A DNA stretch of 32,000 nucleotides from Candidatus Lokiarchaeum ossiferum. Lineage in GTDB: Archaea > Asgardarchaeota > Lokiarchaeia > Sigyniarchaeales > Promethearchaeaceae. The stretch is from the NCBI GenBank assembly GCA_025839675.1, contig CP104013.1, forward strand, positions 4,350,001-4,382,000, written 5' to 3'. Both the position numbers and the translations under genes were made by a program. Shown in pieces: positions 3,367 to 28,296 of this stretch (positions within the stretch are counted from its first letter, which is position 1; the number at the start of each line of letters is the position of its first letter). The notes under the pieces are model-generated. The model had not been told where the DNA came from. It ran no database searches and was given only the letters and a program-made list of their open reading frames with translations.

Positions 3367-4209
3367 ATGGGTTTTTTATGCGATGATAACAATGCACTTG
3401 GGGAAACTAAAACAACGCGCATGATTTATTTGGAACTGAAAAACTCTTGCAATTTAGAACATTCACTATCTTTGGTTCTTAAATATTTACAACAACTTAC
3501 AACCATTGAAGCTATCAGCATTCGACTACATGAAGATGGAGATTTTCCATATTTTGTCTATAATGGATTTACCAAAGAGTTCATTCAGCACGAAATGTAC
3601 TTATGTGTGAAAGATTTTTCTGGAAAAAGAGTCAAAGAACACGATAAAAATCAACTTTTACTTGAATGTATGTGCGGGAATGTGATTCGAGGTCGTACTA
3701 ATCCTGAATTTCCTTTTTTTAGCAAAGGGGGAAGTTTCTGGGCAAATCATACAACAGAACTTCTGGCAAATACAACTGAAGCTGATCGGCAAGCTTCTAC
3801 ACGTAATTATTGCAATAGATGTGGATTTGAATCAGTTGCCCTTATTCCCATCCGAAATGAAGGAAATACTTTAGGTTTAATACAATTGAATGATCATCGC
3901 ATTGGTATGTTCGATTTAGATCAAATCGAGTTTTTAGAAATGATCGGCGATATTATTGGCTCCAAAATTATTAGGGATAAAGAATTTCATCCCCCAAATT
4001 TCAAAGAATTTAATGATTTGATTGTAACCGTTTGCTCTTTTTGTAGAAGTGCAAAAGTTAGCGATATGGAATGGGTTTCTATCGAAAAATTCTTTACAAC
4101 AGTAGAAAAAATTGATAAAATATACTTTTCCCATGGTGTATGCCCAAATTGTCTTCCTTTATTAGATCCAGAATATCAAGGGTCGATGGAAAAAAAAAAT
4201 CACAAGTAA
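3367..4209 (+). CDS. GAF-domain sensor protein with a C-terminal Cys/His-rich CxxC...HGxCPxC module
   Basis: GAF-like core: ECMCGNVIRG...GGSFWAN...GFESVALIPIRNEGNTLGLIQLNDHR...FLEMIGDIIG. C-terminal CSFCRSAKVSDMEWVSIEKF...YFSHGVCPNCL. The start could instead be the Met at residue 19. Confidence 0.65.
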   Translation: MGFLCDDNNALGETKTTRMIYLELKNSCNLEHSLSLVLKYLQQLTTIEAISIRLHEDGDFPYFVYNGFTKEFIQHEMYLCVKDFSGKRVKEHDKNQLLLECMCGNVIRGRTNPEFPFFSKGGSFWANHTTELLANTTEADRQASTRNYCNRCGFESVALIPIRNEGNTLGLIQLNDHRIGMFDLDQIEFLEMIGDIIGSKIIRDKEFHPPNFKEFNDLIVTVCSFCRSAKVSDMEWVSIEKFFTTVEKIDKIYFSHGVCPNCLPLLDPEYQGSMEKKNHK

Positions 4210-4667
4210 TGTTCGTAATAATCTAATTCTGTATTCTTTTTGATTTTTAGTTTCATAAGAACACTTTGGAAATTTGAATCCCGTTTTAGGGCCCAAAGTC
4301 CAATTTTATCTATTTTCATGGTTTTTTTTAAGTAATTAAAGAGTTCACGGAGAATCATTTCTTCAATTCCATTTTTAAATGCATTTTCTTTTCGAGTCAC
4401 CACATCATGAATTAAACAATGTTGGTTTCCAAGAAAATCCGTCCAAATTGTAAAGAAACCTGCTCCAACTAGAGAATTTCCATCTTTTGCTAGCACAATT
4501 GAATTTCGATTTATCAACGATTTAGAGCGCTGATCTATTTCTTTGGAAAATTTGTCTAAATCGACCTTCTCACCTAATTGATCTAATCTGTACTGAAAAT
4601 CTGCAATCAATGCTTCTAAATCCGCTTTATCCTGTCGCGGATTATATCTAACTAATTTTATTTCCAT
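4200..4667 (-). CDS. GNAT-family N-acetyltransferase (putative)
   Basis: GNAT-like size and pattern (LAKDGNSLVGAGFFTI..., HDVVTRKENAFKNGIEEMILRELFNYL resembling motif A). The ORF-track start at 4679 is GTG; the first ATG is at 4667. The 3' end converges on and overlaps the GAF gene by 10 nt. Confidence 0.45.
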   Translation of the reverse strand: MEIKLVRYNPRQDKADLEALIADFQYRLDQLGEKVDLDKFSKEIDQRSKSLINRNSIVLAKDGNSLVGAGFFTIWTDFLGNQHCLIHDVVTRKENAFKNGIEEMILRELFNYLKKTMKIDKIGLWALKRDSNFQSVLMKLKIKKNTELDYYEHYL

Positions 4668-4751
4668 TTTTTTTCTCACTTTTTATTTTAAAGTTCTATA
4701 TATTGCCTTATTGATAATAATTTTAAAAAATGTTGCCATTAACCCTATCTT

Positions 4752-5243
4752 ATGAAACTGCAATTGCCTATCAAAAAATGGAAGGATGATGCTATTCTCC
4801 CCAAAATTGCTACAAAGGGAGATGCTGGAGCAGATTGTTTTATTAATGGATTTAAACGAATAATAAATGGGGATGCAAAAAAACTCGACGAAATTTCTGA
4901 TGATGAATATCTCCTCCAACCTCTCGAAAGAGTGTTATGTCCTCTTGGTTTCGCAACTGCTATTCCGGCAGGCTATTATGCTGCTGTTGTTCCTCGAAGT
5001 GGATTGGCTTTGTGGAGTGGGGTATCTATAGTCAATTCCCCTGGAACTATTGATGCGGGTTATCGTAATGAATGGGGTGCAATTGTTGTCAATCTTTCCA
5101 ATACACCAGTTACTCTTCATAAGGGTGATAAGATTTGTCAATTCATTTTAAGAAAACTGGATGATTATGAATTTGATATCGTTGAAACTCTTCCCACTTC
5201 GGAACGTGGTTTGGGTGGATTCGGTTCCACAGGCAAAAAATAA
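4752..5243 (+). CDS. dut: dUTP diphosphatase (homotrimeric dUTPase)
   Basis: All five dUTPase motifs are present: GDAGADC, PRSGLA, GTIDAGYRNEWG, GDKICQFIL, ERGLGGFGSTG. Confidence 0.9.
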   Translation: MKLQLPIKKWKDDAILPKIATKGDAGADCFINGFKRIINGDAKKLDEISDDEYLLQPLERVLCPLGFATAIPAGYYAAVVPRSGLALWSGVSIVNSPGTIDAGYRNEWGAIVVNLSNTPVTLHKGDKICQFILRKLDDYEFDIVETLPTSERGLGGFGSTGKK

Positions 5244-6388: not shown

Positions 6389-7372
6389 TTAATCGAATCT
6401 CCGACATGTTTCAATAGTTTTCACTATAGATTCTCTAACTCCACCAGTACTGTATTGCAATCTTTCTTTTTGATCTGAGAGCTCAATGTAGAAGTTATCT
6501 GTAAGAATATCTGAAAATAAGTAGTAGGAATCTAGACCTTCATATATCTCTTTTCGTTTCATTTTCCATTTTCTTATTTTCCCAACAATCAAAAATATCC
6601 ATTTTGGAAGAGAAATGACTTTCTTTTTCTTACCATATGTTGAGAACATGATCGTAAGCATTTCTTTCCATGTGATATTTTCATCACCAATCACATAGTG
6701 CTGGTTTTTTTTCCCATTTTCCATGGCGTCAACAATTGCTTCTGCTACATGTTCTACGGTAATCATTGTTGATCCACCTTTTGGAAAAAAAATGATGTTC
6801 CAGTTTTTGAACCGGTCGATGAAAACGCTTTTCCATAGAGGTGCTCTGGCACTTTCAGGCATTGTTCCAAATATATACGGCAATTCGAGAATCATTGTAT
6901 CTATTTGTTCTCCTCCTGCTTCAATTGCATATTCTGCTTGTTCAATTCGACATTGAATATAGGGGTGATGAATTGCCAGTTTTTTCTTGGGATATTTTCT
7001 GTCAAAATAGGCAAAGTATGAGTTTAAAATTACTGCACGTTTAATTTTCGCTAAATTTGCTGCTTGAAAAACTTTTTGGGTTGTTAAAGCTAATTTTTCA
7101 TGAAAAAATTCATAAGGAGGTCTATCTGGAGTGGTTCTATCATCAGGTCCTATAGCATATACTAATGCATCGAATCCGGATAACATTTCAACCATTCTTT
7201 CTTGTTCCATTGAAAAAATATCTCCATATTGAACAGAAACTTTTGATGGAAACCATTTTCCTAATTTTATATCTGGAATTGCAATGGTGCTCACTTCATG
7301 TTCTCTTTTCAAAAATTCTAGAGTTGCATGATATCCTATAAAACCTGTTCCGCCTATTATAAACACTTTCAT
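6389..7372 (-). CDS. NAD(P)-dependent epimerase/dehydratase-like protein (atypical SDR)
   Basis: N-terminal Rossmann motif MKVFIIGGTGFIGYH. About 327 aa. The ORF-track start at 7384 is TTG; the ATG at 7372 puts the GxxGxxG motif at the N-terminus. The active-site region reads YIQCR (YxxxR rather than YxxxK). Confidence 0.7.
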   Translation of the reverse strand: MKVFIIGGTGFIGYHATLEFLKREHEVSTIAIPDIKLGKWFPSKVSVQYGDIFSMEQERMVEMLSGFDALVYAIGPDDRTTPDRPPYEFFHEKLALTTQKVFQAANLAKIKRAVILNSYFAYFDRKYPKKKLAIHHPYIQCRIEQAEYAIEAGGEQIDTMILELPYIFGTMPESARAPLWKSVFIDRFKNWNIIFFPKGGSTMITVEHVAEAIVDAMENGKKNQHYVIGDENITWKEMLTIMFSTYGKKKKVISLPKWIFLIVGKIRKWKMKRKEIYEGLDSYYLFSDILTDNFYIELSDQKERLQYSTGGVRESIVKTIETCRRFD

Positions 7373-7410
7373 TTGTTTGATCAACCCTTTTTGTGTTAAA
7401 TATGTTATTT

Positions 7411-7429
7411 CAAAAATGAAAAGAAAAAA
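7411..7429 (-). terminator. Oligo-T tracts just downstream of the 818-aa gene (candidate end of the long minus-strand operon)
   Basis: After the stop at 7430-7432 the minus strand reads TTTTTTCTTTTCATTTTTG. Confidence 0.35.
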
Positions 7430-9886
7430 TCATGAAACTATCTTATTTCCACATGCCACGCAGAAATTACTACCGTCAGGATTTTCTGTACCGCAATTCG
7501 GACATTTTATCGCATTTTCAGACATTGTTTCTTCAAATTCATGAAAATCAGGAAAATGAGCTTCAATTTTTAACCGGAGGTTATCTTCACGACGTTTAAT
7601 ATGTAACATCTTCTGGATATATTGCTCATATTTCTCCCGAATGATCGGAAATATGACTCCGTCTTTAATATCATCCCATAAAGACAAAGTTTCAAAGCTT
7701 TCATATCCAAATGACATTTTACACCATGAAACTGGTGTTAATCCTTCTGATTCTATCAAAGTAAACATTTTTTGTAATGTAGATTGATCGATCGAATAGG
7801 GAGTGATTTCTTGGGATAAATCATCAAGATTATCGGATAGGATAAATAAATTGGCTGCTTCTTCATCAACACACATGATACCGCATATTTTACCCTTTTG
7901 AAATCTCGGATCTTCAACAGAATCTGCAGCAATGTCTAAAGCTCCATGAGAATTTGGATTTGTTAAAAACTCTATCGTTTTTGCTCTTCCAAAATAGCGC
8001 ATTTCAATCCAACTATCTTGCGTTATTTTAGGAAATTCAGTATCTGTCCTTCTTTTATGGTGAATTTCTATTAATTTTTGAATTTCATCACCGGGAAGTT
8101 CTAGTTCTTCAAACACATTATCTTCAAAACCATTTCCTTCTAATTCTGTAAGCCCTAAAAATATTTGATTATTTCTTCGAATGCGAATAAATGCTTTTTG
8201 AAGCATATCTTCCAATTCATCGGGAGATTCAATATCTTTTTCATCCATTGCGATGAAGTCCTTTATTTGAGGGTTTCCTTCTACTTCTTCTTGGCTCCAA
8301 AAATTTGCCCACATTTGCATTCTTCTTAATTCTGGAATCATCCAAATATTTCTGCCGACCCCCATTGAGATCATGCAAACTGAACCGCCAATTTGCATTC
8401 CTTCCTTATTTGCGTAAGAAATAAGTGTTGGTGGGGGGTAAAATACTCTACTGATTGCTTCATCCTTCTGAGCAAGATCATCCAACTCGGACATTGCTGC
8501 AAGCGATGCTTCTAAATCTTTAAATATATCTTGCTGTGCCATAAGAGATGGATCAATTGAACCAAAATCTCCAAAATCACTTTCCAACGCAGCAGTTCCT
8601 GCTTGAAGGATTTTATCCATATTGTTTGGATCCATGACTTGATTGTCATTTTGATTAAAATTCACGTCGCTTGGGGATCGATTGAAGACATCCTCATATT
8701 CTTCTTCAGAAGGTTGTGATTCAGATAGTTTATTTGGAGTCGTTTTTTCTATTTTTGGAATTGCAATTGTTTTTAACGGTTTAAGGGCAATTTTAGCTAG
8801 TTCTGGTTTTTCTAGTTGTGAATTGGGTGTAGATTGTGACTCCGTTGTAATTTTAGTTAAATTTAATGGTGGAATTGCAATTTTTTCAAGTTGCGTTTGA
8901 GTTTTTTCTGTGAGATCTTTCTCTCTTTCTTGAGGTTCATTTCTTTCATCATGAGCCAACATTTCTGAAACTTTTTCTAAATTAAATGGATTTGATGGGA
9001 TTAATGTATCAACATATTCAAAGTGTGATGGATTTCCTGCCATTAAATCTTTCAAGTATTGATTATACTTCAAGATCGGTTTTGAAAATTGTGGTAAAAT
9101 TTCCATAGAGCGCCATTGTGGAAGATTTTGGAGTGCCCAAATGCCATAATCTAATTTAAATCCTCCTGTTGGAGAAAATTGTTTCATTTTAATGAGTTGT
9201 TCAACTGTATCTCTTCCTTTTTTATCAAGACTTAATGGTTGGAGTGTTTTTTCTTTAGTAATATTTTGTGATAGGATGACAAACTGAAATCTTTTTTTGG
9301 ATACGATATTAGTTCCAAAAATTCCACACAAACTCCCTCGAAAATATGCAGACATTTGAGAAAGTTGTTGTAATTCAAGTTTTTCCAAAGAATCTGATTG
9401 GCGGAAAAATTTTTCTCCTGTTCCAATGAATTGAGTGTAGATCGAATTTGTTTTCTTCTCCAAATCGGGATATATCTCATTTTGGTGATAATTTGAGGGC
9501 ATATTTTCAAAATATTTTGTCTTTCTACGAAACCAACTTCTCTCTTCAGTGATTTGCTTGTCAAATGGTTGAGGACCAAGATGTAAAAGACCAATAAAAA
9601 CATAGCCTTTTTTAATAATATATTCAAGTCCCTTAACGATCTGGGTGCTGATCCATGTGATATTTTTGGGATCATCAGAAGGATCTTTTTCCAGAGTAAT
9701 ATATTCCAATTCTTTATCAGAAACTTGAGTCCAAAACGATCTCCAGATCGAAGGATTATATAATTCTTGCACAATTTCTATATTTTTTTCCGGTGTTAAT
9801 GCAAGCATGCCTACAGAATGATTATATTTAATCAATTCTGCCGGATCGGATTCAAACATTACTGGGTAGGGATAAAATAATTTCAC
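7430..9886 (-). CDS. Large two-module protein of unknown family, with an acidic/Pro-rich disordered linker and a C-terminal zinc ribbon (paralog of 9929-11821)
   Basis: 818 aa with GTG start. The N-terminus MKLFYPYP parallels MRLYNPP of its neighbour. A second module starts at VFYPPP (residue 481). C-terminal CPNCGTENPDGSNFCVACGNKI (7433-7504) is a CxxC-x10-CxxC ribbon. I recognise no known catalytic motif. Confidence 0.8.
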   Translation of the reverse strand: MKLFYPYPVMFESDPAELIKYNHSVGMLALTPEKNIEIVQELYNPSIWRSFWTQVSDKELEYITLEKDPSDDPKNITWISTQIVKGLEYIIKKGYVFIGLLHLGPQPFDKQITEERSWFRRKTKYFENMPSNYHQNEIYPDLEKKTNSIYTQFIGTGEKFFRQSDSLEKLELQQLSQMSAYFRGSLCGIFGTNIVSKKRFQFVILSQNITKEKTLQPLSLDKKGRDTVEQLIKMKQFSPTGGFKLDYGIWALQNLPQWRSMEILPQFSKPILKYNQYLKDLMAGNPSHFEYVDTLIPSNPFNLEKVSEMLAHDERNEPQEREKDLTEKTQTQLEKIAIPPLNLTKITTESQSTPNSQLEKPELAKIALKPLKTIAIPKIEKTTPNKLSESQPSEEEYEDVFNRSPSDVNFNQNDNQVMDPNNMDKILQAGTAALESDFGDFGSIDPSLMAQQDIFKDLEASLAAMSELDDLAQKDEAISRVFYPPPTLISYANKEGMQIGGSVCMISMGVGRNIWMIPELRRMQMWANFWSQEEVEGNPQIKDFIAMDEKDIESPDELEDMLQKAFIRIRRNNQIFLGLTELEGNGFEDNVFEELELPGDEIQKLIEIHHKRRTDTEFPKITQDSWIEMRYFGRAKTIEFLTNPNSHGALDIAADSVEDPRFQKGKICGIMCVDEEAANLFILSDNLDDLSQEITPYSIDQSTLQKMFTLIESEGLTPVSWCKMSFGYESFETLSLWDDIKDGVIFPIIREKYEQYIQKMLHIKRREDNLRLKIEAHFPDFHEFEETMSENAIKCPNCGTENPDGSNFCVACGNKIVS

Positions 9887-9928
9887 TTTGATATACCTTT
9901 TGATTTTTTTTTTTAAATAGTTTTATGG

Positions 9929-11821
9929 TCAATATATGCGATACGGTTCTTCTTTCTCCTTGATTTTAATTAGTTCATCCATATATTTTTTATAATTTTC
10001 GAGAACTATTCTTAATGTGTCATATTGTACAGCGTCTTTCCAATATGGGTGTGTATGTAAAGTATCTTCCCCCAAATTAATTTTAAACCAACATAAAGGT
10101 GCCATATTTGTTTGGGATAAAGTTTCAAACATTTCGTTTAATGTTTCGGAGTCGAATTTAGTTCCATAATCTTCAAATGAGTTCGATAAAATATAAAAAG
10201 ATGTCGATTCTTGTGTTGTACAAACGATTCCTGCAGCAAAAGTATTGTCATAGGCAGAATCTACTTTTATTTTTTCTACAATATCTAAAATACTTGGGAA
10301 AGAATCTGCAAACGTAAAATAATGACTTCCCTTACCATACCACTGAACTCGTATATGTCCATCTTGGAGCTTTGGAAATTTTCCGTTTCTGATTTTGGTG
10401 TGATAATATTTTTGTATCCGCCTTAAATTTTTATCATCAATTTCAAGTTCTTGAAATAGACTAAATTCAAAACTATTTGATTCCAACTCTAACATCCCCA
10501 AAAAAGCTTCCGAACCTTTCATTATGTGCTGGAATGCTTGGATATAAGTGTCACGAAGTTGCACTGGATTTTCAAGTTCTAAAAATTGTTGATCCTCTTG
10601 AATATCATAAAAAACATTCTCATCAGTTTCCTTGGTGTTATCATCGTAGTAATATTCCCCCCAGGATAAATTTTCTCTTAAATCGAAAATGCAATTTATA
10701 TTTTCACCAACATCAATCGAAAGAAGTGTCAAAGCACCTCCAATAACTGCTCTTTTTTGATCTCCGTAGGCAAATAGAATTTTTGGTGGATTATAAAGTA
10801 AGCTGACAGCTCTATCTTCTTCAGCTAATTCATTCACTTTATTGAGGGCTTCCATGATTGTTTCCAGATCTTCTTCAATTTCATCTTCCGTCATATTTTT
10901 AATTGAAATTGGTTTGCCAAGATCTTCATCCAAAATATTTTCTACGGTCTTTTCTTCTCGCTTTATAATTAATCCTCGAACATAATCTAAATATTTAGAA
11001 TGAGCTTCTTGAACATCAGGTCGGTCTTTAATCTCATCATATCCATCCAATTGTTCCAATCCGGATAATCCTAAATCTACCTTAAACCATGAAATTGGTG
11101 CGGCTAAGACTCCTTTTTTTAGAAGTTGAAACATTTGATTTAAATTGTTTTTATCAATATGCACTTCAGCGGTTTTTTCTTGCTTGAATATATTATCTGT
11201 TAGAAGAATAAAATTAGCTGCACCTTGGGCGACGGCTACTATCCCAGAAGCATATCCTTGATACGGATACACCATTGCGGCAATATCGTTGAAATTCTTC
11301 TTGTTTGGGATTGTAAAAAAAGCAGATGTTTCCCCAAAAAAGTTGATTTCAACAAATGAGTTTCCACTTCCAGCCGCCTTATATAAATTCGGAAATTCAT
11401 TTTTTACACGACTAGATTTATATAAGTTCATTAATCGGTTTTGATCTTCGAGCTCTAATTCGACTTCATCAAATACAAATGTTTCAAATGCATTTCCTTC
11501 AAATGATGCTACTCCAAATAATATCAATCCCCGTGTCCGAATTCGATTCAAAGATGAAATTATACGACTTGCAAGTTCATTTGAATCATAAAGAGCTTCC
11601 GAATCTTCATGTTTGATATTAATTTTCTCAATTTGATCAGCGATCCGGATATTTTCTTTCCCTTTCCAAAATTCTCCTTGGCTCAACTCTGAAAAAATAT
11701 CCGAAATTTTTATGAATTCTTTTTCCTCATCCATCGCTAAAATGCATTTTGCTCCCGCTAGTTCAACACTATATTTATCACCTTTTGGTAATAACGCTAC
11801 GGGAGGATTATAAAGTCGCAT
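9929..11821 (-). CDS. Two-module protein of unknown family (paralog of 7430-9886)
   Basis: 630 aa from the ATG at 11821, which has GGTGA 5 nt upstream. The ORF-track start at 11833 is TTG. Module A covers residues ~1-295 and module B starts at LLYNPP (nt ~10801). It shares the motifs ...FLG(M/L).ELE.N.FE..(L/V)F.E(L/V)E..., GI(V/M)C/A....(A/S)..F.IL(S/T)(D/N)N and L(N/Q).MF..L......P(I/V/L).W(F/C)K(V/I/M).(L/F)G with the 818-aa protein. Confidence 0.8.
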   Translation of the reverse strand: MRLYNPPVALLPKGDKYSVELAGAKCILAMDEEKEFIKISDIFSELSQGEFWKGKENIRIADQIEKINIKHEDSEALYDSNELASRIISSLNRIRTRGLILFGVASFEGNAFETFVFDEVELELEDQNRLMNLYKSSRVKNEFPNLYKAAGSGNSFVEINFFGETSAFFTIPNKKNFNDIAAMVYPYQGYASGIVAVAQGAANFILLTDNIFKQEKTAEVHIDKNNLNQMFQLLKKGVLAAPISWFKVDLGLSGLEQLDGYDEIKDRPDVQEAHSKYLDYVRGLIIKREEKTVENILDEDLGKPISIKNMTEDEIEEDLETIMEALNKVNELAEEDRAVSLLYNPPKILFAYGDQKRAVIGGALTLLSIDVGENINCIFDLRENLSWGEYYYDDNTKETDENVFYDIQEDQQFLELENPVQLRDTYIQAFQHIMKGSEAFLGMLELESNSFEFSLFQELEIDDKNLRRIQKYYHTKIRNGKFPKLQDGHIRVQWYGKGSHYFTFADSFPSILDIVEKIKVDSAYDNTFAAGIVCTTQESTSFYILSNSFEDYGTKFDSETLNEMFETLSQTNMAPLCWFKINLGEDTLHTHPYWKDAVQYDTLRIVLENYKKYMDELIKIKEKEEPYRIY

Positions 11822-11836
11822 CAAATTCACCAAGTT

Positions 11837-13477
11837 TTATAAGTCAATCATTGAAAAATTTAAATCTAAGGTATGCAAAATCATTGGTAAATCATGCAAT
11901 TCTTCACCTTTCAATAGATCTGTACTCGCGCCATAGTTTGCTCGATCAGGAGTAATTAATCTGACCGTGTTCCACGTATCTAATGGTTTTTTTAAACCTG
12001 ATCGAAGATAGAGACCTAATGAGCCTTGAGGTGCTTCCACAACATCAATAAAATGCTGATTCGGTTCCCACTGAATACCATTTTCCATAATTTCAGATTT
12101 AAGATTCCTTCCATATGAAGATAATCCATGTAGAATGTGCTTGCAGATAGCAATCGATTCTTTAATTTCCCATAATCTTACTTGAGTTCTTGCAAAACTG
12201 TCGCCTTCTTTAAAAGTGATAACATTCCATACTTGAGATATTTCCCCTAAAGTATATGTTAAGTACGGATCATTTAAGCGAACATCAATTGGGATTCCAC
12301 TTCCTCTAATTGAAGGTCCCGTTAATCCGCTCTTAATTGCATTTTCTTGTGAGATTTTGCCAATATGCGCAAGATTTTGACTCACTTTTTGAGAGTATGT
12401 GAAATTATAAATATCATCAAATATCTGGTTTTCACTATCCCTAAAATAGTGATATAAATTTTGAGCCGCTGTCATAGATATATCTGTGGCTGATCCATAG
12501 CTGATGATGCTTAGCAAGTTTTTTGGATCCATGTGATTTTCTAAATGAATGGTGAGTTTCAAGTAATTTCGATAAATTTTTTTCGCCGCTCGTTTCATTC
12601 CAAATAAATCTGCAAGATTTGTGAACCACAATAAATGAGAAAAAATTCGTTCCAGCTCTGCCCCAAGGGTTCGAATAAACTTTGCCTTTAATGGGACTGA
12701 TTTCTCATTGATGAATTCAGACATCTGAGTATATAATAAATAATTATGAAAAGCATGATTTTTTGACAGTTCACTTAATACGGGGGCAAAACCATTGATA
12801 GGATCGGCGTTTTCTAAACGAGGTTGAAATTTTTTGTAGTTCCAGCCGTCCCGAATTTCAACTTTCTGAACAATATTTTCTTGAATATTGAGATCAAAAT
12901 AGTTTGCAGATTTATGAATCTCATCATAAATACCCGTTTTATCTTGAAACTGGGTTTGGGGCTTGAAATCAAAATTAGTTGGTGTACAGTAAAGATCTTC
13001 GTTTGATATTGCTTTATATGCAATATTAATAAATTCTATTCCCATTCGATGAGTTAACGTAGTTTCATGAATTTGGGCGTTCTTATATATTAAAGCAATT
13101 GAATCCAATTCTAATTTTTTTTTAATGACTAACTGGATGATGATTGATGATTTGTGAACAAAAGGGCGATTATGGAATAAGTAGTTTACTTCAAGTGAAT
13201 CTCCGATGTCAGAAGCAAAAATAGAAGACAAATTGAACTTTAAATCCCTGAAATACTTTGCAATATCTTTAATTCGAATTCTATTGACAAGTATCATGTT
13301 ATTATTCTCAGTTGAAATCCTTTTTAGAAAATCTAAGCCCAAAAAATTCTCGAGATTCGTGATTACTGCCTCAATACTAAGTTGCACGTTACGATTAGGT
13401 AAAACCTCACTTTGATGCGTTCTTACATCTGAATTTAGGGATATTTTTGGTAATCTACTTGATTCTGGGCCTTCCAT
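11837..13477 (-). CDS. NuoC-NuoD fusion-like protein (complex I 30-kDa/49-kDa, [NiFe]-hydrogenase large-subunit superfamily), degenerate and orphan
   Basis: NuoC-like part: DSLEVNYLFHN...YKNAQIHETTLTHRMGIEF (compare A-x-W-x-E-R-E-x-x-D-M-F-G-I-x-F). NuoD-like part: AELERIFSHLLWF, GLTGPSIRGSGIPIDVRLNDPYLTY, GDSFARTQVRLWEIKESI, VEAPQGSLGLYLRSG, VRLITPDRANYG. At the position of the hydrogenase RxCGxCxxxH motif it reads LSELSKNHAFH, and the C-terminus is LNFSMIDL. Neither contains any Cys. Confidence 0.75.
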   Translation of the reverse strand: MEGPESSRLPKISLNSDVRTHQSEVLPNRNVQLSIEAVITNLENFLGLDFLKRISTENNNMILVNRIRIKDIAKYFRDLKFNLSSIFASDIGDSLEVNYLFHNRPFVHKSSIIIQLVIKKKLELDSIALIYKNAQIHETTLTHRMGIEFINIAYKAISNEDLYCTPTNFDFKPQTQFQDKTGIYDEIHKSANYFDLNIQENIVQKVEIRDGWNYKKFQPRLENADPINGFAPVLSELSKNHAFHNYLLYTQMSEFINEKSVPLKAKFIRTLGAELERIFSHLLWFTNLADLFGMKRAAKKIYRNYLKLTIHLENHMDPKNLLSIISYGSATDISMTAAQNLYHYFRDSENQIFDDIYNFTYSQKVSQNLAHIGKISQENAIKSGLTGPSIRGSGIPIDVRLNDPYLTYTLGEISQVWNVITFKEGDSFARTQVRLWEIKESIAICKHILHGLSSYGRNLKSEIMENGIQWEPNQHFIDVVEAPQGSLGLYLRSGLKKPLDTWNTVRLITPDRANYGASTDLLKGEELHDLPMILHTLDLNFSMIDL

Positions 13478-13556
13478 ATTGGGTTCCTTTTATTCAATTA
13501 ATTTTAGAAATGGAGAAATGCAGATTTCTCCTACTTAAACATTGGTTTTTAAACAT

Positions 13557-14075
13557 TTAATGCTTTTGAGGTATGAAAAGGTAATTTTGCAGTTGGCGCC
13601 AATTAATAATAGAGTGATGAAAAATAATTTTTTTAGAAATCCCAATCCAAAGTAATCCGATAAGTCCTATTATTTCAGTACTATACACGAGTGGATTATT
13701 AAATAAAGTGTAAAAAAAATCTTCAATTTTCGATTCATATATTGTAATTGGTACTATAGGCCATAGCCAAGGGACTGCTGGAATATCTAATAATAAATGA
13801 AACAAAGTTCCGATTCCAAAAGACGAAGCTACATTCTTGTTTTTCGTTAGTAGAAATAAAATCAAGCTTATAATTCCCAATAAAAGCGGGGTATGGAAAT
13901 ATCCTCTTCCTCCAGCAATCCCAAAAATGAGAAACAATGGTTTATCTATAAGATCTGGAAAGATAGATCCTACAATAATCCAGAATATATGTATTTCTGG
14001 TTTTTTTTCCTTTTTAATCAACAATAATATTTCAACACAAAGTAATGGGACAAATATATGGAATAAGATGAACAT
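13557..14075 (-). CDS. Membrane-bound metal-dependent hydrolase-like protein (DUF457/YdjM-like), putative
   Basis: 172 aa and polytopic. IFPDLIDKPL, GGRGYFHTPLL and LFHLLLD resemble the LPDIDH / GHRGxTHS / SHLxxD pattern of DUF457 proteins. The first motif lacks the His. Confidence 0.45.
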   Translation of the reverse strand: MFILFHIFVPLLCVEILLLIKKEKKPEIHIFWIIVGSIFPDLIDKPLFLIFGIAGGRGYFHTPLLLGIISLILFLLTKNKNVASSFGIGTLFHLLLDIPAVPWLWPIVPITIYESKIEDFFYTLFNNPLVYSTEIIGLIGLLWIGISKKIIFHHSIINWRQLQNYLFIPQKH

Positions 14076-14083
14076 TTGTTAAG

Positions 14084-15406
14084 CTAAATAATGAAGCGTG
14101 ATAAATAAACAAAAGCAACTGCCATAAAAGTAATGATTCCACTCATTTTCAGTGCCATTTTTAATAAATAATTGTAGGATAAGGGCTTTGGGGTGAATTT
14201 ATCTGTTTTTTGCAAAATAGAATCAATTTGTGGTAATCCAAAGCCTTGTGTATATTCTGGAAGTTGCAAAATCATTGAATTTTGTTGAAATAAAGACACT
14301 AAATCTGTTGAAGTACAATTTGGGACAACTTGTAGGAATAATGCTGCAAAACCCGCAAAAATGGCCGCCGCACTTGATGTTCCTGATATTCTAGAACTTG
14401 TTGCAGGAACATTTTTTCCAGGAAGGACAAATGTTGGTTTTAATTGTGAGGATTTGTTAAATGAAGCGCTTGAATTTCTACCTGAAAAGAAGAGCTTTTT
14501 ATATTGTTGATCGACTGCTCCAATACATATTACGTTTGGATTCATACTTGGATTACCAATATTCCCCGGATCTGGTCCTAAGTTTCCTGTTGGTGCTATT
14601 AGAATTATATTTTTTGAGGACAATAACGGTAAATAATGGCTGAATAAATCATCTGAAACGCCTTTAGAGCCTGTAGAACATCCAAAAAGCAGAATATGGG
14701 GCATTTCTTCTTGTGGTAAATCAAGTAGGTTTTCTAACCCTTGTATTATATCACTTAAAGTTGAAGATCCATCAGAATCAAAAACTTTAATGTCGATTAG
14801 TTTAATATTGGGGGCAATTCCCGCAAATAAATTTTGAGAGTTCTGTCCCGACCCAACAATGATACTGGCTAAATTCGTTCCATGAAGGTTATAGTGATTT
14901 GAATCTCCAATCGAATCTCCAATTTGTTTGATCTGTTTTTTAGAATATCCTAATTTATTAGGATCAATTCCTGAGTCTAGTATTGCAATGCGAATGCCTT
15001 TGCCGGTAATTTCTTCATAGGAATTATGAATTTCTTCAAGATTTATTTCTTCATTAAATTCTTCTCCACATAAATAGATTGGATAGTTACCATATATTCT
15101 AATGATTTCGTGGTTATCTGATAACTGGTAACATTCCTGGTACGTCGATTCTAACAATGCTATAGGAAAATGATGAAATTCTGATAGTATCTTCAATTTT
15201 ACATTTGAATCAGCCTGAGAATTTTTAATATTATTAACAAACTGTTCCAATTGTTCCAAATCTCCAAATTGGACGAGATAATTAATGATTATTTCGTTTG
15301 ACAACCTTTCCAAATCGAATTCATTTTCCAGTAATTCAATCGGAGAATGTTTCGCCACCCAAAGCTCAATGGGATCAAAATTTTCATGGAATTTGGATAT
15401 AATCAT
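14084..15406 (-). CDS. Subtilisin-like serine protease (peptidase S8) with a C-terminal TM anchor and no signal peptide
   Basis: Catalytic motifs in canonical order: IAILDSGID (Asp144), HGTNLASII (His175), APTGNLG (oxyanion Asn275), SGTSSAAAIFAG (Ser344). One hydrophobic helix at ~417-437, 3 residues from the C-terminus. The N-terminal ~130 aa are hydrophilic and acidic. GAGGT Shine-Dalgarno ~10 nt upstream. Confidence 0.8.
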   Translation of the reverse strand: MIISKFHENFDPIELWVAKHSPIELLENEFDLERLSNEIIINYLVQFGDLEQLEQFVNNIKNSQADSNVKLKILSEFHHFPIALLESTYQECYQLSDNHEIIRIYGNYPIYLCGEEFNEEINLEEIHNSYEEITGKGIRIAILDSGIDPNKLGYSKKQIKQIGDSIGDSNHYNLHGTNLASIIVGSGQNSQNLFAGIAPNIKLIDIKVFDSDGSSTLSDIIQGLENLLDLPQEEMPHILLFGCSTGSKGVSDDLFSHYLPLLSSKNIILIAPTGNLGPDPGNIGNPSMNPNVICIGAVDQQYKKLFFSGRNSSASFNKSSQLKPTFVLPGKNVPATSSRISGTSSAAAIFAGFAALFLQVVPNCTSTDLVSLFQQNSMILQLPEYTQGFGLPQIDSILQKTDKFTPKPLSYNYLLKMALKMSGIITFMAVAFVYLSRFII

Positions 15407-15468: not shown

Positions 15469-16221
15469 TTAATTGTGCTCTCTGATTTTATTCAAAATAT
15501 CTTCTAAAGCAAAATCTGCCATACCTAAGCTTGTGTTTGCATTGAACAGAAGCACTACGTATATTGGGGTATGAAAAGTCTCAATAGAAACGACTTGAGA
15601 AAAAATCAATTTATCGCCACCTTGCCAAATGAATTTAGGATTAGAGACGATTTCTCTTCGATTAGCCTTCGATCGTAGCTCTATTTCCCGCAAACTGGTT
15701 TCCAAATCTTCTAGTGGCAATGAAGAATAGTAGATTTCCCCTTTTAACGACATTAGTGCTGCAGCAAGAAGATCTCCTCTGGATATTTCCCCTTCAAAAA
15801 TATGTTTTAATGATTCGATGTTTGTATCACTGTAATCATCTTGGAAATTGAAAATTTCATCAATACGATTCTCTGTATCTTCATCGTCCAAAAAAATATT
15901 CGTGTCCAATGCCCGTTGGATTTTATCAAGATCAACGGCTGAAATTATTCGATCCATTCTTTCATCTAATAAAAGAGCACTCGAATCACTCGAAGTAATT
16001 ACTATGAAAATAAAATCTCCATGATGACGAAAGAAAAAACGAAGGCTTCCCATTTCCAAAATATTAAGTTTTTGATTAACAATTGTACTTGAAAAAGCCA
16101 TTATTGCCCCAAAAAAAGAAGAAAGTAGGGTAAAATCCGTTTTTATTAGTTCCTCGCTGAAATTTTTGTGATAAATTGGAATTCCAGAATTGTGGAGTAT
16201 GAAAAAACTATGAATTTGCAT
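15469..16221 (-). CDS. Two-domain protein: N-terminal longin-like domain plus C-terminal Roadblock/LC7-like domain (putative)
   Basis: The N-terminus MQIHSFFILHNSGIPIYHKNF...DFTLLSSFFGAIMAFSS...LEMGSLRFFFRHHGDFIFIVITS follows the longin / sigma-adaptin-like beta-beta-alpha-beta-beta-beta pattern. The C-terminus LLAAALMSLKGEIYYSSL...KFIWQGGDKLIFSQV...IYVVLLFNANTSLGMADFALEDILNKI follows the Roadblock pattern. Assigned by pattern only. Confidence 0.45.
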   Translation of the reverse strand: MQIHSFFILHNSGIPIYHKNFSEELIKTDFTLLSSFFGAIMAFSSTIVNQKLNILEMGSLRFFFRHHGDFIFIVITSSDSSALLLDERMDRIISAVDLDKIQRALDTNIFLDDEDTENRIDEIFNFQDDYSDTNIESLKHIFEGEISRGDLLAAALMSLKGEIYYSSLPLEDLETSLREIELRSKANRREIVSNPKFIWQGGDKLIFSQVVSIETFHTPIYVVLLFNANTSLGMADFALEDILNKIREHN

Positions 16222-16230
16222 TGCGAGTTC

Positions 16231-16680
16231 TTATTCCTGTGTTCGTTCCATTTGTAATTTGTAGAGTACAATCCTAAATCGTAATATATCCTTTAAAATT
16301 TTCTCAGGATGAGGTGTTTGCCCAGTAATAATAAAGGAATCATTACCTTCTAACGGAAAAATAACAAAATTCTTCTTTTCACCAAAGTTATAAGATATAT
16401 ACTTTAGAGGATTTTCTTCTTCATTGGGAAATAGTTTCAAAATTTGATATCGAATGAAATATTCACTCATTTTAGCATTGTATCTTTTTGATTGCTTATG
16501 ATCCTCAAGGTAGTTTTCTGAGAAAACACTCATGATTTCTAGTCCTTTAATCTTTCCAGTTACTCCGACTAAAGCTAAAAAAGAAGATTGAGATTTTTTA
16601 AGGGTTGATTCAAATTGCTGTTCTAGCTCCTTTATTGCTTCAATTTCTTGTTTAGAAAAGAATTTTGAAAGAATTCCCAT
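16231..16680 (-). CDS. Roadblock/LC7-fold-like small protein (putative)
   Basis: 149 aa. The predicted alpha-beta-beta-alpha-beta-beta-alpha order is readable from the sequence: EIEAIKELEQQFESTL / FLALVGVTG / IKGLEIMSV / YNAKMSEYFIRYQILKLF / LKYISYNFGEKK / FVIFPLEGNDSFIITG / PEKILKDILRFRIVLYKL. Confidence 0.4.
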   Translation of the reverse strand: MGILSKFFSKQEIEAIKELEQQFESTLKKSQSSFLALVGVTGKIKGLEIMSVFSENYLEDHKQSKRYNAKMSEYFIRYQILKLFPNEEENPLKYISYNFGEKKNFVIFPLEGNDSFIITGQTPHPEKILKDILRFRIVLYKLQMERTQE

Positions 16681-16697
16681 TATTATTTCAATCCTTT

Positions 16698-17162
16698 CTA
16701 ACTCATTTCACTCTCAAAAATGCATTTTTTGCATCCATTGGCGATAAGTTCTTTTGGTTCCATGTAAAATTGTTTGTCTGGAAACGCAAGTTGAAGGGCT
16801 GTATCAAATAATCCTTCTGTATAGTGGCAGAAAAATTCCATATCTTGAATGGGAAACCCTCCTGCTTTTTTATAAGGGCATGCATCTAATTCGATATCAA
16901 TTTTATTTCCATTTAGTTTTACTGACCCCTTATTTTCACCGATAACCGGTTCGATTACCTCAGACACGAGTAAATTGCAAAATTCCTCTACTGTAGTATA
17001 TTTTCCTTTAAATTTCCGGAAAATATCTTCTGCAGCGGCTTCACCAACTCTACGGAAAATCATCGTTAACGTTTCAAAGCCAAGGGTATCTTTAATCTCC
17101 TTTAAACTCATTTGAAATATATTTGCAATAAATTTTAATTGTCTAACTCTTTTTGTGACCAT
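16698..17162 (-). CDS. V4R (4-vinyl reductase / Bet3-TRAPP-related) domain protein
   Basis: IFRRVGEAAAEDI..., ELDACPYKK...FFCHYTEGLFDTALQLAF and C-terminal ELIANGCKKCIFESE match the V4R pattern (C-x-x-C... C-H-x-x-x-G-x-x-x-G ... E-x-x-C-x-x-x-G-x-x-x-C-x-F). I chose the start at ATG 17162 because GGTGA lies 5 nt upstream and abuts the upstream stop (TAAGGTGAAAAGAATG). An alternative ATG at 17189 would overlap the Roadblock gene by 17 nt. Confidence 0.6.
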   Translation of the reverse strand: MVTKRVRQLKFIANIFQMSLKEIKDTLGFETLTMIFRRVGEAAAEDIFRKFKGKYTTVEEFCNLLVSEVIEPVIGENKGSVKLNGNKIDIELDACPYKKAGGFPIQDMEFFCHYTEGLFDTALQLAFPDKQFYMEPKELIANGCKKCIFESEMS

Positions 17163-17172
17163 TCTTTTCACC

Positions 17173-17550
17173 TTATCCAAAAATTTCATTCAACTTCTCT
17201 GCTGCATCTTCCAGTTCCAAACTAATCAATCCTAAGTTTGGTTCTTGTTTAGTCAATACAATTAAGATCACTTTTCCTGTGAAAAGTAAGAAAACATTCC
17301 CAGTTGAAATTTCAATATTTAGCGATTTAAATTCTCCTTTTAGTAATTCTCCAGATGCTCGTTTGGAGATACTGTATAAAGCCGAAGCCATAGCTCCTAA
17401 AAGGCGTTCTGATTTTTTATCTTGGCTGATAGTTTTTCGTAGAGATAAAATAATCAAACCATTTGTTCGAGCAATAGCAAGATCATTTAAATCTGGAGCT
17501 CTGTTGTGTAGATCCTCCAGTAATTTTCTTGCTTCATCCATCCTACTCAT
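17173..17550 (-). CDS. Roadblock/LC7 (MglB-like) domain protein
   Basis: LNDLAIARTNGLIILSL...LLGAMASALYSISKRASGELLKGEFKSLNIEISTGNVFLLFTGKVILIVLTKQEPNLGLISLELEDAAEKL is a textbook Roadblock/LC7 pattern. I chose the start at ATG 17550, preceded by GGGGAG. The ORF extends to 17622, but its first 24 codons look non-coding. Confidence 0.75.
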   Translation of the reverse strand: MSRMDEARKLLEDLHNRAPDLNDLAIARTNGLIILSLRKTISQDKKSERLLGAMASALYSISKRASGELLKGEFKSLNIEISTGNVFLLFTGKVILIVLTKQEPNLGLISLELEDAAEKLNEIFG

Positions 17551-17573
17551 TTTTTTCTCCCCTCTCTGTCCTA

Positions 17574-17583
17574 TTTTAAATAT
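17574..17583 (-). promoter_or_regulatory. Candidate TATA box for the Roadblock-led operon
   Basis: The minus strand reads ATATTTAAAA 24-33 nt upstream of the ATG at 17550, inside a 280-nt AT-rich gap to the upstream gene. Confidence 0.3.
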
Positions 17584-17833
17584 CTGTTTTGTTCCATCAA
17601 AAAAAAGGTTTGTTGTAAACATAAAATTTCTCTTTACGATATGTATGGGAGAGAAATTTGTATTGTGATAAAATGAGTTTTTTTAACTTAAATTATTATG
17701 GTCACCAAACTTCGTTCATTAACAATTTAATCTTTTATTTATATTCTTTTTTCTTCTGCTTTAAAGCATGAAAAAATTCACTGCATAGATATCGAAAATA
17801 AATTTAGATTCTGAAGAGAATCTTCAATTCATA

Positions 17834-21933: not shown

Positions 21934-22461
21934 ATGTCTATTCGCAACAATGATGATACGACAAAAAAACAAGTAAACGCTTTGGTTGTTTATTATTCGC
22001 TTACCAACACTACAAAAACAATTGCAGAATCGATTCAAAAGGAACTTTCCTGTGATATCTTACGAATACAACCTGTCAAAGAACTCAATCCTGAAGGAGG
22101 TGCCAAATTTGTTTGGGGGGGAATGCAAGCAACAATGCACACTAAACCAAAAATTGAACCTCATTTCCTAGAACTCTCAAATTATGATTTAATATTCATC
22201 GGAACTCCAGTATGGGCATGGACTTTTGCACCTCCAATACGAACTTTTCTTGCTGAGAACAATTTACAAAATAAAAATGTGGCTCTTTGGACATGTGCTG
22301 GAGGTGTTGAGGAAAAAGCCTTACTTCGTTTAAAAAAGCAAATTAAGGATTGCAATTACATTGGTGGTATAAGATTCATTCAACCAGCGGATAATAATCA
22401 TGATGCTAACATTGCTAAAACAATAGAATGGGTCAAATCCATAAAATGGGCTCAAAGTTGA
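21934..22461 (+). CDS. Flavodoxin-like protein
   Basis: ALVVYYSLTNTTKTIAESI (FMN phosphate-loop-like S/T-x-T-x-x-T) and DLIFIGTPVWAWTFAPPIRTFL, typical of the flavodoxin_4 / NAD(P)H-dependent-oxidoreductase-like family. Confidence 0.7.
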   Translation: MSIRNNDDTTKKQVNALVVYYSLTNTTKTIAESIQKELSCDILRIQPVKELNPEGGAKFVWGGMQATMHTKPKIEPHFLELSNYDLIFIGTPVWAWTFAPPIRTFLAENNLQNKNVALWTCAGGVEEKALLRLKKQIKDCNYIGGIRFIQPADNNHDANIAKTIEWVKSIKWAQS

Positions 22462-22476
22462 AAGGGATGTAATCTG

Positions 22477-23280
22477 ATGCAAACAGAAATTAAAGTAAAA
22501 TCTAAAACTAATTTGGGTCTCCGTCAGAAGATTCGAAAATCTATCCTATTTCTATGGTTAGTAGTGATGCCTATTACTTTCAATCTATTTTCCCCTATCT
22601 TGATTATTATGGCGGGATTTGAGGCAACAATTAACATGAGTATTATTATATTTGCTATTTGGTTTCTATCCTCATTAATCTTTGGCCGTGCATATTGTGC
22701 TTATGGATGTCAATGGGGGGCTTTACAGGAAATTTTTGGGGAAACAATGAAGAAAAAATTGGATCCAAATAAAAAAACAAGAAATCGGAAAGTGAAATTT
22801 CCAGTTTTTATCATTTGGATTGTGGTTGTATTTTTGGGACCCATTTTAGCTGGAGGTTATTTTAATGGAATTAATTTCTTTTATCCAAATGTCGCTGAAC
22901 AAAATCAATGGTGGTCATTTGACGGAAGGGCTCCAAGTTCTTTGATTTTTTACTTCGGAATTCAAATTTCAGTGATATTAATCTTTGTTTTAATACCTGG
23001 AAATCGTGGTCTATGCGCCTATGGATGTCCGATGGGAGTTCTTGGGATTCTTGGCACAAAAATTAAAAATTTCTTCAAGTGGCCGAGCCTACATTTGGAG
23101 TCTGATTCGAGTAAATGCATAAAATGTAAGAAATGTTCCAAAGAATGTCCAATGTCGATAGATGTTCATACTCTTATCCAATCGGAAAATATAGAGGATA
23201 TGGAATGTATTTTGTGTGGGAGTTGTGTTGATGTTTGTTCTCACGATGTGATTAAATTTGCTTGGAAGTGGAAAAAATAA
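22477..23280 (+). CDS. Membrane-bound 4Fe-4S binding protein (NapH/MauN/YccM-like)
   Basis: Several TM helices. Paired CAYGCQWGA and CAYGCPMGV motifs. C-terminal 2x[4Fe-4S] ferredoxin motifs CIKCKKCSKECP and CILCGSCVDVCS. Starts 15 nt after the flavodoxin stop. Confidence 0.75.
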   Translation: MQTEIKVKSKTNLGLRQKIRKSILFLWLVVMPITFNLFSPILIIMAGFEATINMSIIIFAIWFLSSLIFGRAYCAYGCQWGALQEIFGETMKKKLDPNKKTRNRKVKFPVFIIWIVVVFLGPILAGGYFNGINFFYPNVAEQNQWWSFDGRAPSSLIFYFGIQISVILIFVLIPGNRGLCAYGCPMGVLGILGTKIKNFFKWPSLHLESDSSKCIKCKKCSKECPMSIDVHTLIQSENIEDMECILCGSCVDVCSHDVIKFAWKWKK

Positions 23281-28255: not shown

Positions 28256-28296
28256 ACATCTAGGAATTTAGATATGCAAAAATTGGATAAATAAAA

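Follow-up and report, generated by a model that had tools for sequence, protein, structure and literature searches.

A NuoC-NuoD fusion protein lacking the Ni-Fe cysteines and the quinone-site tyrosine, fixed in a conserved operon of Lokiarchaeia and probably re-used outside respiration

We studied a 32-kb stretch of DNA (32,000 nucleotides, here referred to as the window) with a G+C content of ca. 33% and proteins that are 98 to 100% identical to those of Candidatus Lokiarchaeum ossiferum, which assigns it to a Lokiarchaeum (Asgard archaea, Lokiarchaeia). On its minus strand, positions 11837 to 13477 hold an ATG-initiated open reading frame (ORF) of 546 amino acids (aa) that encodes a fusion of NuoC and NuoD, here called the NuoCD-like protein. 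It is the third of five tightly spaced genes on the same strand (the cassette), which code for an S8 subtilase (S8), a YdjM-family membrane protein (YdjM), the NuoCD-like protein and two large proteins, P630 and P818. The NuoCD-like protein has the fold of the complex I and [NiFe]-hydrogenase large subunits and has lost all of their catalytic residues that were checked, while its gene keeps a conserved operon context, is under purifying selection and is transcribed in P. syntrophicum MK-D1. We conclude that it has probably taken on a task outside respiration and, on balance, we lean toward a catalytically dead Q-module scaffold that now forms part of a membrane-associated complex specific to Lokiarchaeia.

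Fold and family of the NuoCD-like protein

Both halves of the fusion were recognized by Pfam. The Complex1_49kDa domain (PF00346) matched with an E value of 8.6e-29 (100.9 bits), and Complex1_30kDa (PF00329) matched aa 64 to 153 with an E value of 1.7e-6 (29.1 bits, against a cutoff of 22.5). The NuoC/30-kDa-like N-terminal domain spans ca. aa 35 to 160 (12998 to 13375, minus strand), where the AlphaFold2 (AF2) model has a predicted local distance difference test score (pLDDT) of ca. 87 to 90, and the family profile also found the NuoC subunit of MBS (6u8y_K, 1.8e-5). Its PLRKDYP-containing C-terminal end, present in E. coli NuoCD, HycE and sequence P0017, is deleted. The NuoD/[NiFe]-large-subunit-like domain, with remodeled active-site motifs, occupies aa 180 to 546 (11840 to 12940, minus strand). 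The AF2 model of the whole protein, for which the input was a 20-sequence alignment, had a pLDDT of 84.1 and a predicted template modeling score (pTM) of 0.87. Its full-length Foldseek match was E. coli HycE (E value of 5e-23, TM scores of 0.76 and 0.78), and the fused NuoCD of Aquifex and of E. coli complex I were matched as well; over the NuoD domain alone, TM scores were 0.57 to 0.60, with a root mean square deviation of ca. 3 to 4 Å. Taken together, Pfam, AF2, Foldseek and the family alignments identify the protein as a NuoCD-like (HycE-like) pseudo-subunit. A preliminary description of this DNA had assigned it to the 49-kDa/[NiFe] large-subunit family and given it an N-terminal 30-kDa (NuoC-like) domain, and both assignments were borne out, the second for the core of the domain. 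The peptides quoted there, namely, LSELSKNHAFH, LDLNFSMIDL, GWNYKKFQPRLE (aa 211 to 222), ELERIFSHLLW, GLTGPSIRGSGIPIDVRLNDPY, GDSFARTQVRLWEIKESI and VEAPQGSLGLY, all occur where it had placed them.

In a search of PDB sequences, the best matches were NdhH, MBS subunit L, the Aquifex NuoCD fusion and the mitochondrial 49-kDa subunit, with MbhL and HycE lower. The profile of the family gave E values of 3.9e-34 for 7q5y_B and 1e-33 for NdhH, and MBS subunit L (6U8Y_L) went from 1.1e-18 in the sequence search to 7.7e-30 in this profile search. The scores against the curated NCBIfam models were far below all cutoffs (NuoD, 124 bits versus 360; FpoD, 98.5 versus 600; NdhH, 81.7 versus 583). A tight family of at least 295 bits was obtained in the single-sequence search, and in the profile search full-length family members scored at least 626 bits and a 290-aa family fragment 337, compared with at most 145 for canonical NuoD. 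Identity over the large-subunit domain was 19 to 25% between the family and NuoD and 20.5% between the family and HycE, lower than the 26 to 30% between NuoD and HycE themselves. In a rough neighbor-joining tree with E. coli NuoCD, HycE and seven NuoD sequences, the family formed its own long branch. By these sequence comparisons, it is a separate clade, farther from NuoD and from HycE than those two are from each other. The signals of ancestry diverge, since the architecture and a missing insertion (see below) are HycE-like, whereas the profiles slightly favor NuoD, NdhH and Mbs.

Loss of the Ni-Fe cysteines and the quinone-site tyrosine

We aligned the family to canonical NuoD sequences and to NuoCD and HycE from E. 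coli MG1655. The N-terminal Ni-Fe motif of HycE (L1), SDRVCGICGFAHS, pairs with LSELSKNHAFHNY in the NuoCD-like protein, so that the two cysteines are replaced by S238 and H241; this is the segment LSELSKNHAFH (aa 234 to 244; 12746 to 12778, minus strand), which also covers the RLDY position of complex I and reads SELSKNH in place of DRxCGxC or DRLDYVS. At the other end, LDLNFSMIDL (aa 537 to 546; 11840 to 11869, minus strand) stands at the position of the C-terminal Ni-Fe motif DPCxxCxxR, and the pairing of HycE DPCYSCTDR with DLNFSMIDL puts N540 and M543 in place of the two cysteines and L546 in place of the terminal arginine. There are only two cysteines in the whole protein. Judging from these residues, it cannot bind a Ni-Fe center, in agreement with the claim made before that it has no Ni-Fe cysteines. 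Ni-Fe cysteines are, however, normally absent from any NuoD, and the informative losses are therefore those of the quinone-site tyrosine, of the HRGxEK block and of the partner subunits.

The tyrosine of the RLDY motif binds the quinone headgroup in complex I (Nqo4 Tyr87, 49-kDa Tyr144). In our alignment, RLDY pairs with ELSK and the tyrosine position is K239; across the family, the position is taken by K, Q, A, E, S or P and is thus unconstrained. The HRGxEK block, for which the preliminary description had given a different reading, is indeed gone: where NuoD has GxxHRGxEK, the protein reads GWNYKKFQPRLE, with N213-Y-K-K-F-Q-P219 in the window, (Y/N)xK(I/F)QP in the family and LYxKIQP as the consensus. 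The GPQHPxxHG loop is one residue shorter, reading GIYDEIH in the window and GIF(h)PIH in the family. The invariant H188 aligns one residue before the histidine of the β1-β2 loop (equivalent to Nqo4 His38), and the canonical histidine itself pairs with K189. A check of the quinone-pocket residues, which had been proposed, thus gave a clear loss for the tyrosine and an offset of one residue for the histidine. Overall, the residues that define the complex I quinone site appear to be absent.

Other changes set the family apart. There is a 4-aa insertion, SQVW, with an invariant tryptophan (W417), and the insertion of ca. 19 residues ("LIHHFK") of true NuoD is missing, likewise in HycE. The superfamily core, on the other hand, has been kept (ELERIxSHL, GPxxRGSGxxxDxR, PYxxY, GDxxxRxxVRxxExxxS, ExPxG and two C-terminal aspartates), the C-terminal motif of the NuoD-like domain being HTLDLNFSMIDL. 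The invariant polar residues specific to the family include H188, E222, K264, D332, R506 and H535.

Absence of redox partners

No NuoB, NuoH, NuoI, NuoL/M/N or Hyp domain was found by Pfam in any sizeable ORF of the window, as had been stated of partner and maturation genes from inspection of the sequence. The same holds for ca. 16 orthologous loci, covered with flanks of as much as 10 kb, where no nuo, mbh, ech or hyp genes were detected, whole genomes not having been searched for NuoB or NuoH. Neither the window nor the related loci contained a hydrogenase small subunit, membrane subunits, Hyp maturation genes or the endopeptidase.

Published surveys give a similar picture. In a census of transporters covering Loki, Thor, Odin, Heimdall and MK-D1, NDH-family systems were found only in Odin (PMC7997004). 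Surveys of Asgard hydrogenases and complex I reported group-4 complexes only in other Asgard classes. In the accessible part of the MK-D1 gene table, the name NADH-quinone oxidoreductase is carried only by the orthologue of this gene and by a NuoE-like gene.

Conservation, selection and expression of the cassette

Related loci were gathered through NuoCD-like and P630 homologs and by genome and metagenome scans, and their ORFs were scored against the window proteins; with strict patterns, the genome and metagenome scans returned 9 and 2 loci, respectively. The order YdjM, NuoCD-like, P630, P818 was invariant in ca. 16 distinct loci, down to a NuoCD-like identity of 32%. Among them are the loci of L. 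ossiferum, P. syntrophicum MK-D1, “Candidatus Harpocratesius” and many metagenome-assembled genomes, and both cultured strains carry the cassette. S8 lies upstream in all loci except those of one lineage (L005/L006). The association with the 630/818-aa family, for which a co-occurrence test had been suggested, was complete: in every member with enough flanking DNA, the NuoCD-like gene is followed by the 630-aa and ca. 800-aa paralogs and preceded by a YdjM-family gene.

Gaps within the cassette are 8 to 90 nt, and overlaps of 4 to 20 nt occur between YdjM and NuoCD-like (L008 and L009), S8 and YdjM (L007), and P630 and P818 (L005). The gap of 15 nt to the next gene given in the preliminary description is correct if P630 begins with the ATG at 11821, the start chosen in the L. 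ossiferum annotation (630 aa), and is not found with the mechanically called ORF (634 aa), which starts at a TTG at 11833, four codons before. The upstream flank depends on the lineage (AMP-ligase, NadB-like, DeoC or longin genes), and the cassette remains intact throughout.

The cassette genes in the window are 96 to 99.6% identical to those of L. ossiferum at the nucleotide level. In this comparison, the NuoCD-like gene had a pN/pS ratio of 0.145, and P630 showed 7 synonymous and no nonsynonymous changes. Across family members that share as little as 32% identity, 50 alignment columns were invariant. The five genes of MK-D1 (DSAG12_01304 to DSAG12_01308) are transcribed at similar levels, with 205, 163, 171, 197 and 216 reads per kilobase per million mapped reads in Supplementary Table 3 of Imachi et al. 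2020, where the NuoCD-like protein is named “F420H2 dehydrogenase subunit D” (COG3261, arCOG01547, K13378). The NuoCD-like gene is not decaying: it is conserved, under purifying selection and transcribed in MK-D1.

One locus differed in appearance. In a 196-kb ENA contig (L023, positions 6550 to 13765), the cassette is broken into short ORFs, with fragments of S8, NuoC, NuoD, P630 and P818 in order. Most likely, this fragmentation reflects frameshift errors of long-read sequencing rather than pseudogenization, and such frameshifts account for a 392-aa “NuoD-only” database entry (P0012).

The other proteins of the cassette

P630 (9929 to 11821, minus strand) consists of two tandem modules of ca. 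290 aa, revealed by an internal repeat and belonging to an Asgard-restricted family. P818 (7430 to 9886, minus strand) has two modules, a long acidic low-complexity linker and a C-terminal zinc ribbon (PF13240, aa 794 to 815), and its BLASTP matches to P630 had E values of 1e-45 and 5e-33. In the related loci, a protein of ca. 630 aa is likewise followed by one of ca. 770 to 850 aa. Within the cassette, conservation is strongest in P630, with 47 to 84% identity compared with 32 to 46% for NuoCD-like at comparable depth. Apart from the zinc ribbon of P818, neither protein had a match in Pfam, NCBIfam, PADLOC or PDB sequences, and a reading of the two as a defense system was rejected. The AF2 model of P630 (pLDDT of 81) had no Foldseek match in the PDB at an E value of ≤0.001; several fold candidates (PDE6 tandem GAF, MPN of CSN6 and Rpn8/11, CheF and Cas7f) were weak and mutually inconsistent and were not used. 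By hhalign, the P630 profile showed no relationship to the neighboring longin protein or to the NuoCD-like profile.

An exhaustive search with a hidden Markov model retrieved 68 relatives of the module among 1.84 billion representative sequences, including single-module proteins of 310 to 355 aa. In 98 extracted modules, the conserved sites were mostly glycine, proline and aromatic residues, together with the polar E108, N110, E119 and D223, and inspection of the conserved polar positions revealed no obvious catalytic set. Two single-module genes are adjacent in L026 (211 to 2176), and the module gene of L010 lies near a dCTP deaminase gene (DCD) and a gene for a protein of ca. 159 aa (orf159). 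Arf/Rag-type small GTPase genes were seen a few kilobases from module genes in three unrelated contigs (L025, 12491 to 12976; L026, 2895 to 4391; L005, 2354 to 3259), a proximity that could be due to chance, Asgard GTPases being numerous. The module family (7430 to 11821, minus strand, plus sequences P0059 to P0123) may be of greater interest than the NuoCD-like protein.

The gene directly upstream of NuoCD-like in all cases encodes a polytopic membrane protein of the YdjM family (PF04307; 13557 to 14075, minus strand; 172 aa; Pfam E value of 1.5e-10) with ca. five hydrophobic segments. Residues H6, E15, D41, D44, H61, H93 and D97 are invariant in 13 orthologs, a set in keeping with PF04307 proteins being putative metal-dependent hydrolases, and Pfam also gave a weak resemblance to Zn-phospholipase C. 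The first gene of the cassette (14084 to 15406, minus strand) encodes an S8 subtilase of 440 aa (PF00082, 3.5e-29) with a transmembrane segment at aa 414 to 440 and no such hydrophobic segment at the N terminus. With its triad D144/H175/S344 and N275 invariant, the protein has the appearance of an active, tail-anchored protease on the cytoplasmic side.

Other genes in the window

Several other gene groups in the window were noted. At 4200 to 5243, a dCTP deaminase/dUTPase-like gene is accompanied by a divergently oriented gene for a protein of ca. 152 to 159 aa without a Pfam match, and this pair adjoins module-family genes in L002, L005 and L007 to L010, L010 being a single-module contig. Directly upstream of S8, four packed genes on the same strand (15469 to 17622, minus strand) encode a Roadblock/LC7 protein, a Cys-rich protein of 163 aa with a weak MetOD1 match, a 149-aa protein of no assigned family and a 250-aa longin of the Fuz/MON1 type; these are GTPase-regulator-like proteins of a kind typical of Asgard archaea. 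A longin gene is found ahead of S8 in L012 as well and is not found there in MK-D1 or in Harpocratesius. A flavodoxin-like gene followed by a gene for a membrane polyferredoxin (Fer4_5, NapH/MauN-like, 267 aa), with an adjoining TetR regulator, lies at 21934 to 23280 (plus strand). These are the sole redox-type genes of the window; they lie on the opposite strand, 9 kb from NuoCD-like, and do not accompany the cassette in other genomes. Finally, a MoxR-like AAA_5 ATPase (304 aa) and a protein of 734 aa whose middle is a long stretch of low complexity and whose C-terminal domain is of the VWA type (27341 to 30501, plus strand) form a classic MoxR-VWA pair.

Proposed role and competing explanations

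A protein that has lost the Ni-Fe cysteines and the quinone-site tyrosine, has no Fe-S partner in its operon and is nevertheless folded, constrained and expressed is best explained as a pseudo-enzyme. The recruitment of a Q-module scaffold to a non-redox role, put forward in the preliminary description, is supported by the lost catalytic residues, the absence of partners in ca. 16 loci, the co-occurrence with the cassette and the maintenance of the gene. Its ancestor would have been a NuoC-NuoD or HycE-type large subunit of the complex I/group-4 hydrogenase superfamily, which would have lost catalysis and kept the fold; with the loss of the Ni-Fe cysteines, the quinone-site tyrosine, HRGxEK and the Fe-S partner NuoB, electron transfer would have ended. 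The protein would now serve, as a subunit with a structural or adaptor role, in an assembly that is specific to Lokiarchaeia and lies at the membrane on its cytoplasmic side, encoded by one operon and comprising the tail-anchored S8 protease, the YdjM integral membrane protein (metal-hydrolase-like), NuoCD-like, P630 and P818, the last two together contributing four copies of the Asgard-only module of ca. 290 aa. Because the gene always lies between that of a polytopic membrane protein and those of P630 and P818, we propose a bridging role at the membrane: the NuoCD-like protein would dock on YdjM, as NuoD sits on NuoH, and recruit or organize a P630/P818 heteromer. It is from the conservation of the operon that we infer this physical association and structural role with the neighboring proteins, and membrane docking and the absence of a redox function are put forward in the same conditional sense. 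That the cassette as a whole is an unrecognized membrane machine of Lokiarchaeia, in which the Q-module scaffold of a lost group-4 hydrogenase or complex I-like enzyme acts as a non-redox docking subunit for a four-module heteromer of novel fold, is a bolder suggestion that we make tentatively and would place somewhat short of an even chance.

Some observations weigh against the subunit role that we favor. Synteny reaches beyond the cassette, with the downstream dCTP deaminase, orf159 and ArgRS genes likewise conserved, so that adjacency counts for less here than it would if gene order had been scrambled. In L010, L025 and L026, moreover, single-module genes occur without a nearby NuoCD-like gene, which suggests that the module family is older or wider than its link with NuoCD-like; it is not strictly dependent on the NuoCD-like protein. 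If, as both sets of observations would allow, the adjacency were simply inherited and the protein worked independently of its neighbors (in moonlighting or in assembly, for instance), single-module relatives of P630 beside DCD and orf159 would be easily understood. The shared strand, tight spacing, occasional overlaps and uniform transcription in MK-D1 argue against this explanation, as does the varying upstream flank around an intact cassette, and we consider it distinctly unlikely. Furthermore, the closeness of H188 to the loop histidine and the retained core residues would leave room for a remodeled ligand site. A pocket around H188, E222, H535 and D538 might then hold a small molecule, in which case the protein would sense a ligand or form part of an enzyme; the molecule could be a lipid or an isoprenoid on which the YdjM-type hydrolase acts. 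The invariant polar residues of the family (H188, E222, K264, D332, R506 and H535) and the His/Asp/Glu set of YdjM, typical of metal hydrolases and accompanied by the weak Zn-phospholipase-C resemblance, are compatible with such a site. However, the equivalents of the Ni-Fe cysteines and of the quinone tyrosine vary within the family, there is no cofactor motif in a protein with only two cysteines, and NuoB or the small subunit, which completes the pocket in known members of the superfamily, is absent from these loci. We regard a retained ligand site as possible, though unlikely.

Two further explanations would keep the protein closer to its ancestry. Database names such as NuoC/D or FpoD would fit a working large subunit of a complex I-like or Ehr/Mbx-like complex whose other subunits are scattered in the genome. 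Ehr-type complexes also lack Ni-Fe cysteines, and our search for partners spanned the window and ca. 16 loci, not whole genomes. Nonetheless, the quinone tyrosine and HRGxEK are lost, the scores are far under the equivalog cutoffs and not one of the loci has a partner subunit. When the restriction of NDH-family systems to Odin in the transporter census and the two oxidoreductase names in the accessible MK-D1 table are added, a scattered complex seems highly improbable. At the opposite extreme, the loss of all checked catalytic residues and locus partners might point to a decaying, functionless relic of a lost membrane-bound hydrogenase. Such decay is hard to reconcile with ORFs that are intact in all good assemblies, 50 invariant columns, a pN/pS ratio of 0.145, a confident AF2 model and expression in MK-D1; it is already contradicted by the conservation pattern, and we give it hardly any credence.

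Novelty and significance

To our knowledge, NuoD and the [NiFe] large subunits are known only as the catalytic cores of electron-transfer complexes, in every case with a NuoB-type Fe-S subunit as partner. A conserved and expressed member without cysteines or partners would demonstrate that so ancient a scaffold is able to take on other work and, if our proposal is true, would be the first NuoD/[NiFe]-large-subunit homolog working outside any electron-transfer complex. In the literature, we found no description of the protein or of the locus tags DSAG12_01306 to DSAG12_01308 and NEF87_003726 to NEF87_003728, and the surveys of Asgard hydrogenases and complex I do not mention it. What is new is a partner-less, Cys-less NuoCD/HycE homolog fixed in a non-respiratory operon, the mechanism being hypothetical. 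There is also a practical side. The names NuoC/D and FpoD should not be taken as evidence of respiratory capacity in Lokiarchaeia, and reconstructions of Asgard metabolism that rely on this annotation could credit these archaea in error with respiration or energy conversion. The cassette points, in addition, to an uncharacterized Asgard-restricted protein family and, being present in both cultured strains, is open to direct study by proteomics, pull-downs and cryo-electron tomography.

Comparison with known systems

Three groups of systems provide points of comparison. The large subunits of Ehr and Mbx-Mbs lack some or all Ni-Fe cysteines, and in this respect they resemble the NuoCD-like protein as large-subunit homologs without a Ni-Fe site, with 6U8Y_L among its best sequence matches. 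As far as is known, however, their operons keep NuoB-like Fe-S, NuoH-like and antiporter-like membrane subunits, partners that were found in no NuoCD-like locus.

Complex I NuoCD (E. coli, 7P61; Aquifex aeolicus, 7Q5Y) and the NuoD/NdhH/49-kDa proteins share the fold and the fusion and gave the best sequence-profile matches. The cysteine-free type of C-terminal motif, xSxDxxxxxxD, is common to them and the NuoCD-like protein, together with ELERIxxHL, RGSGxxxDxR and GDxxxRxxxRxxE. In contrast to NuoD, the NuoCD-like protein has K239 for the tyrosine and an added SQVW, and it lacks HRGxEK, the NuoD insertion and the PLRKDYP linker of NuoC; unlike complex I, its operon has no NuoB, NuoH or NuoI.

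The large subunit of E. coli hydrogenase 3/formate hydrogenlyase, HycE (7Z0S chain E), differs from the NuoCD-like protein by its four Ni-Fe cysteines, by a C-terminal extension for HycI processing and by its company, since no HycG, HycF, HycC, HycD or Hyp genes occur near NuoCD-like, and identity over the large-subunit domain is only 20.5%. Yet it is with HycE that the NuoCD-like protein shares its two-domain architecture, its best full-length structural match and the lack of the “LIHHFK” insertion of ca. 19 aa, and the MK-D1 ortholog is placed in the HycE-type COG3261.

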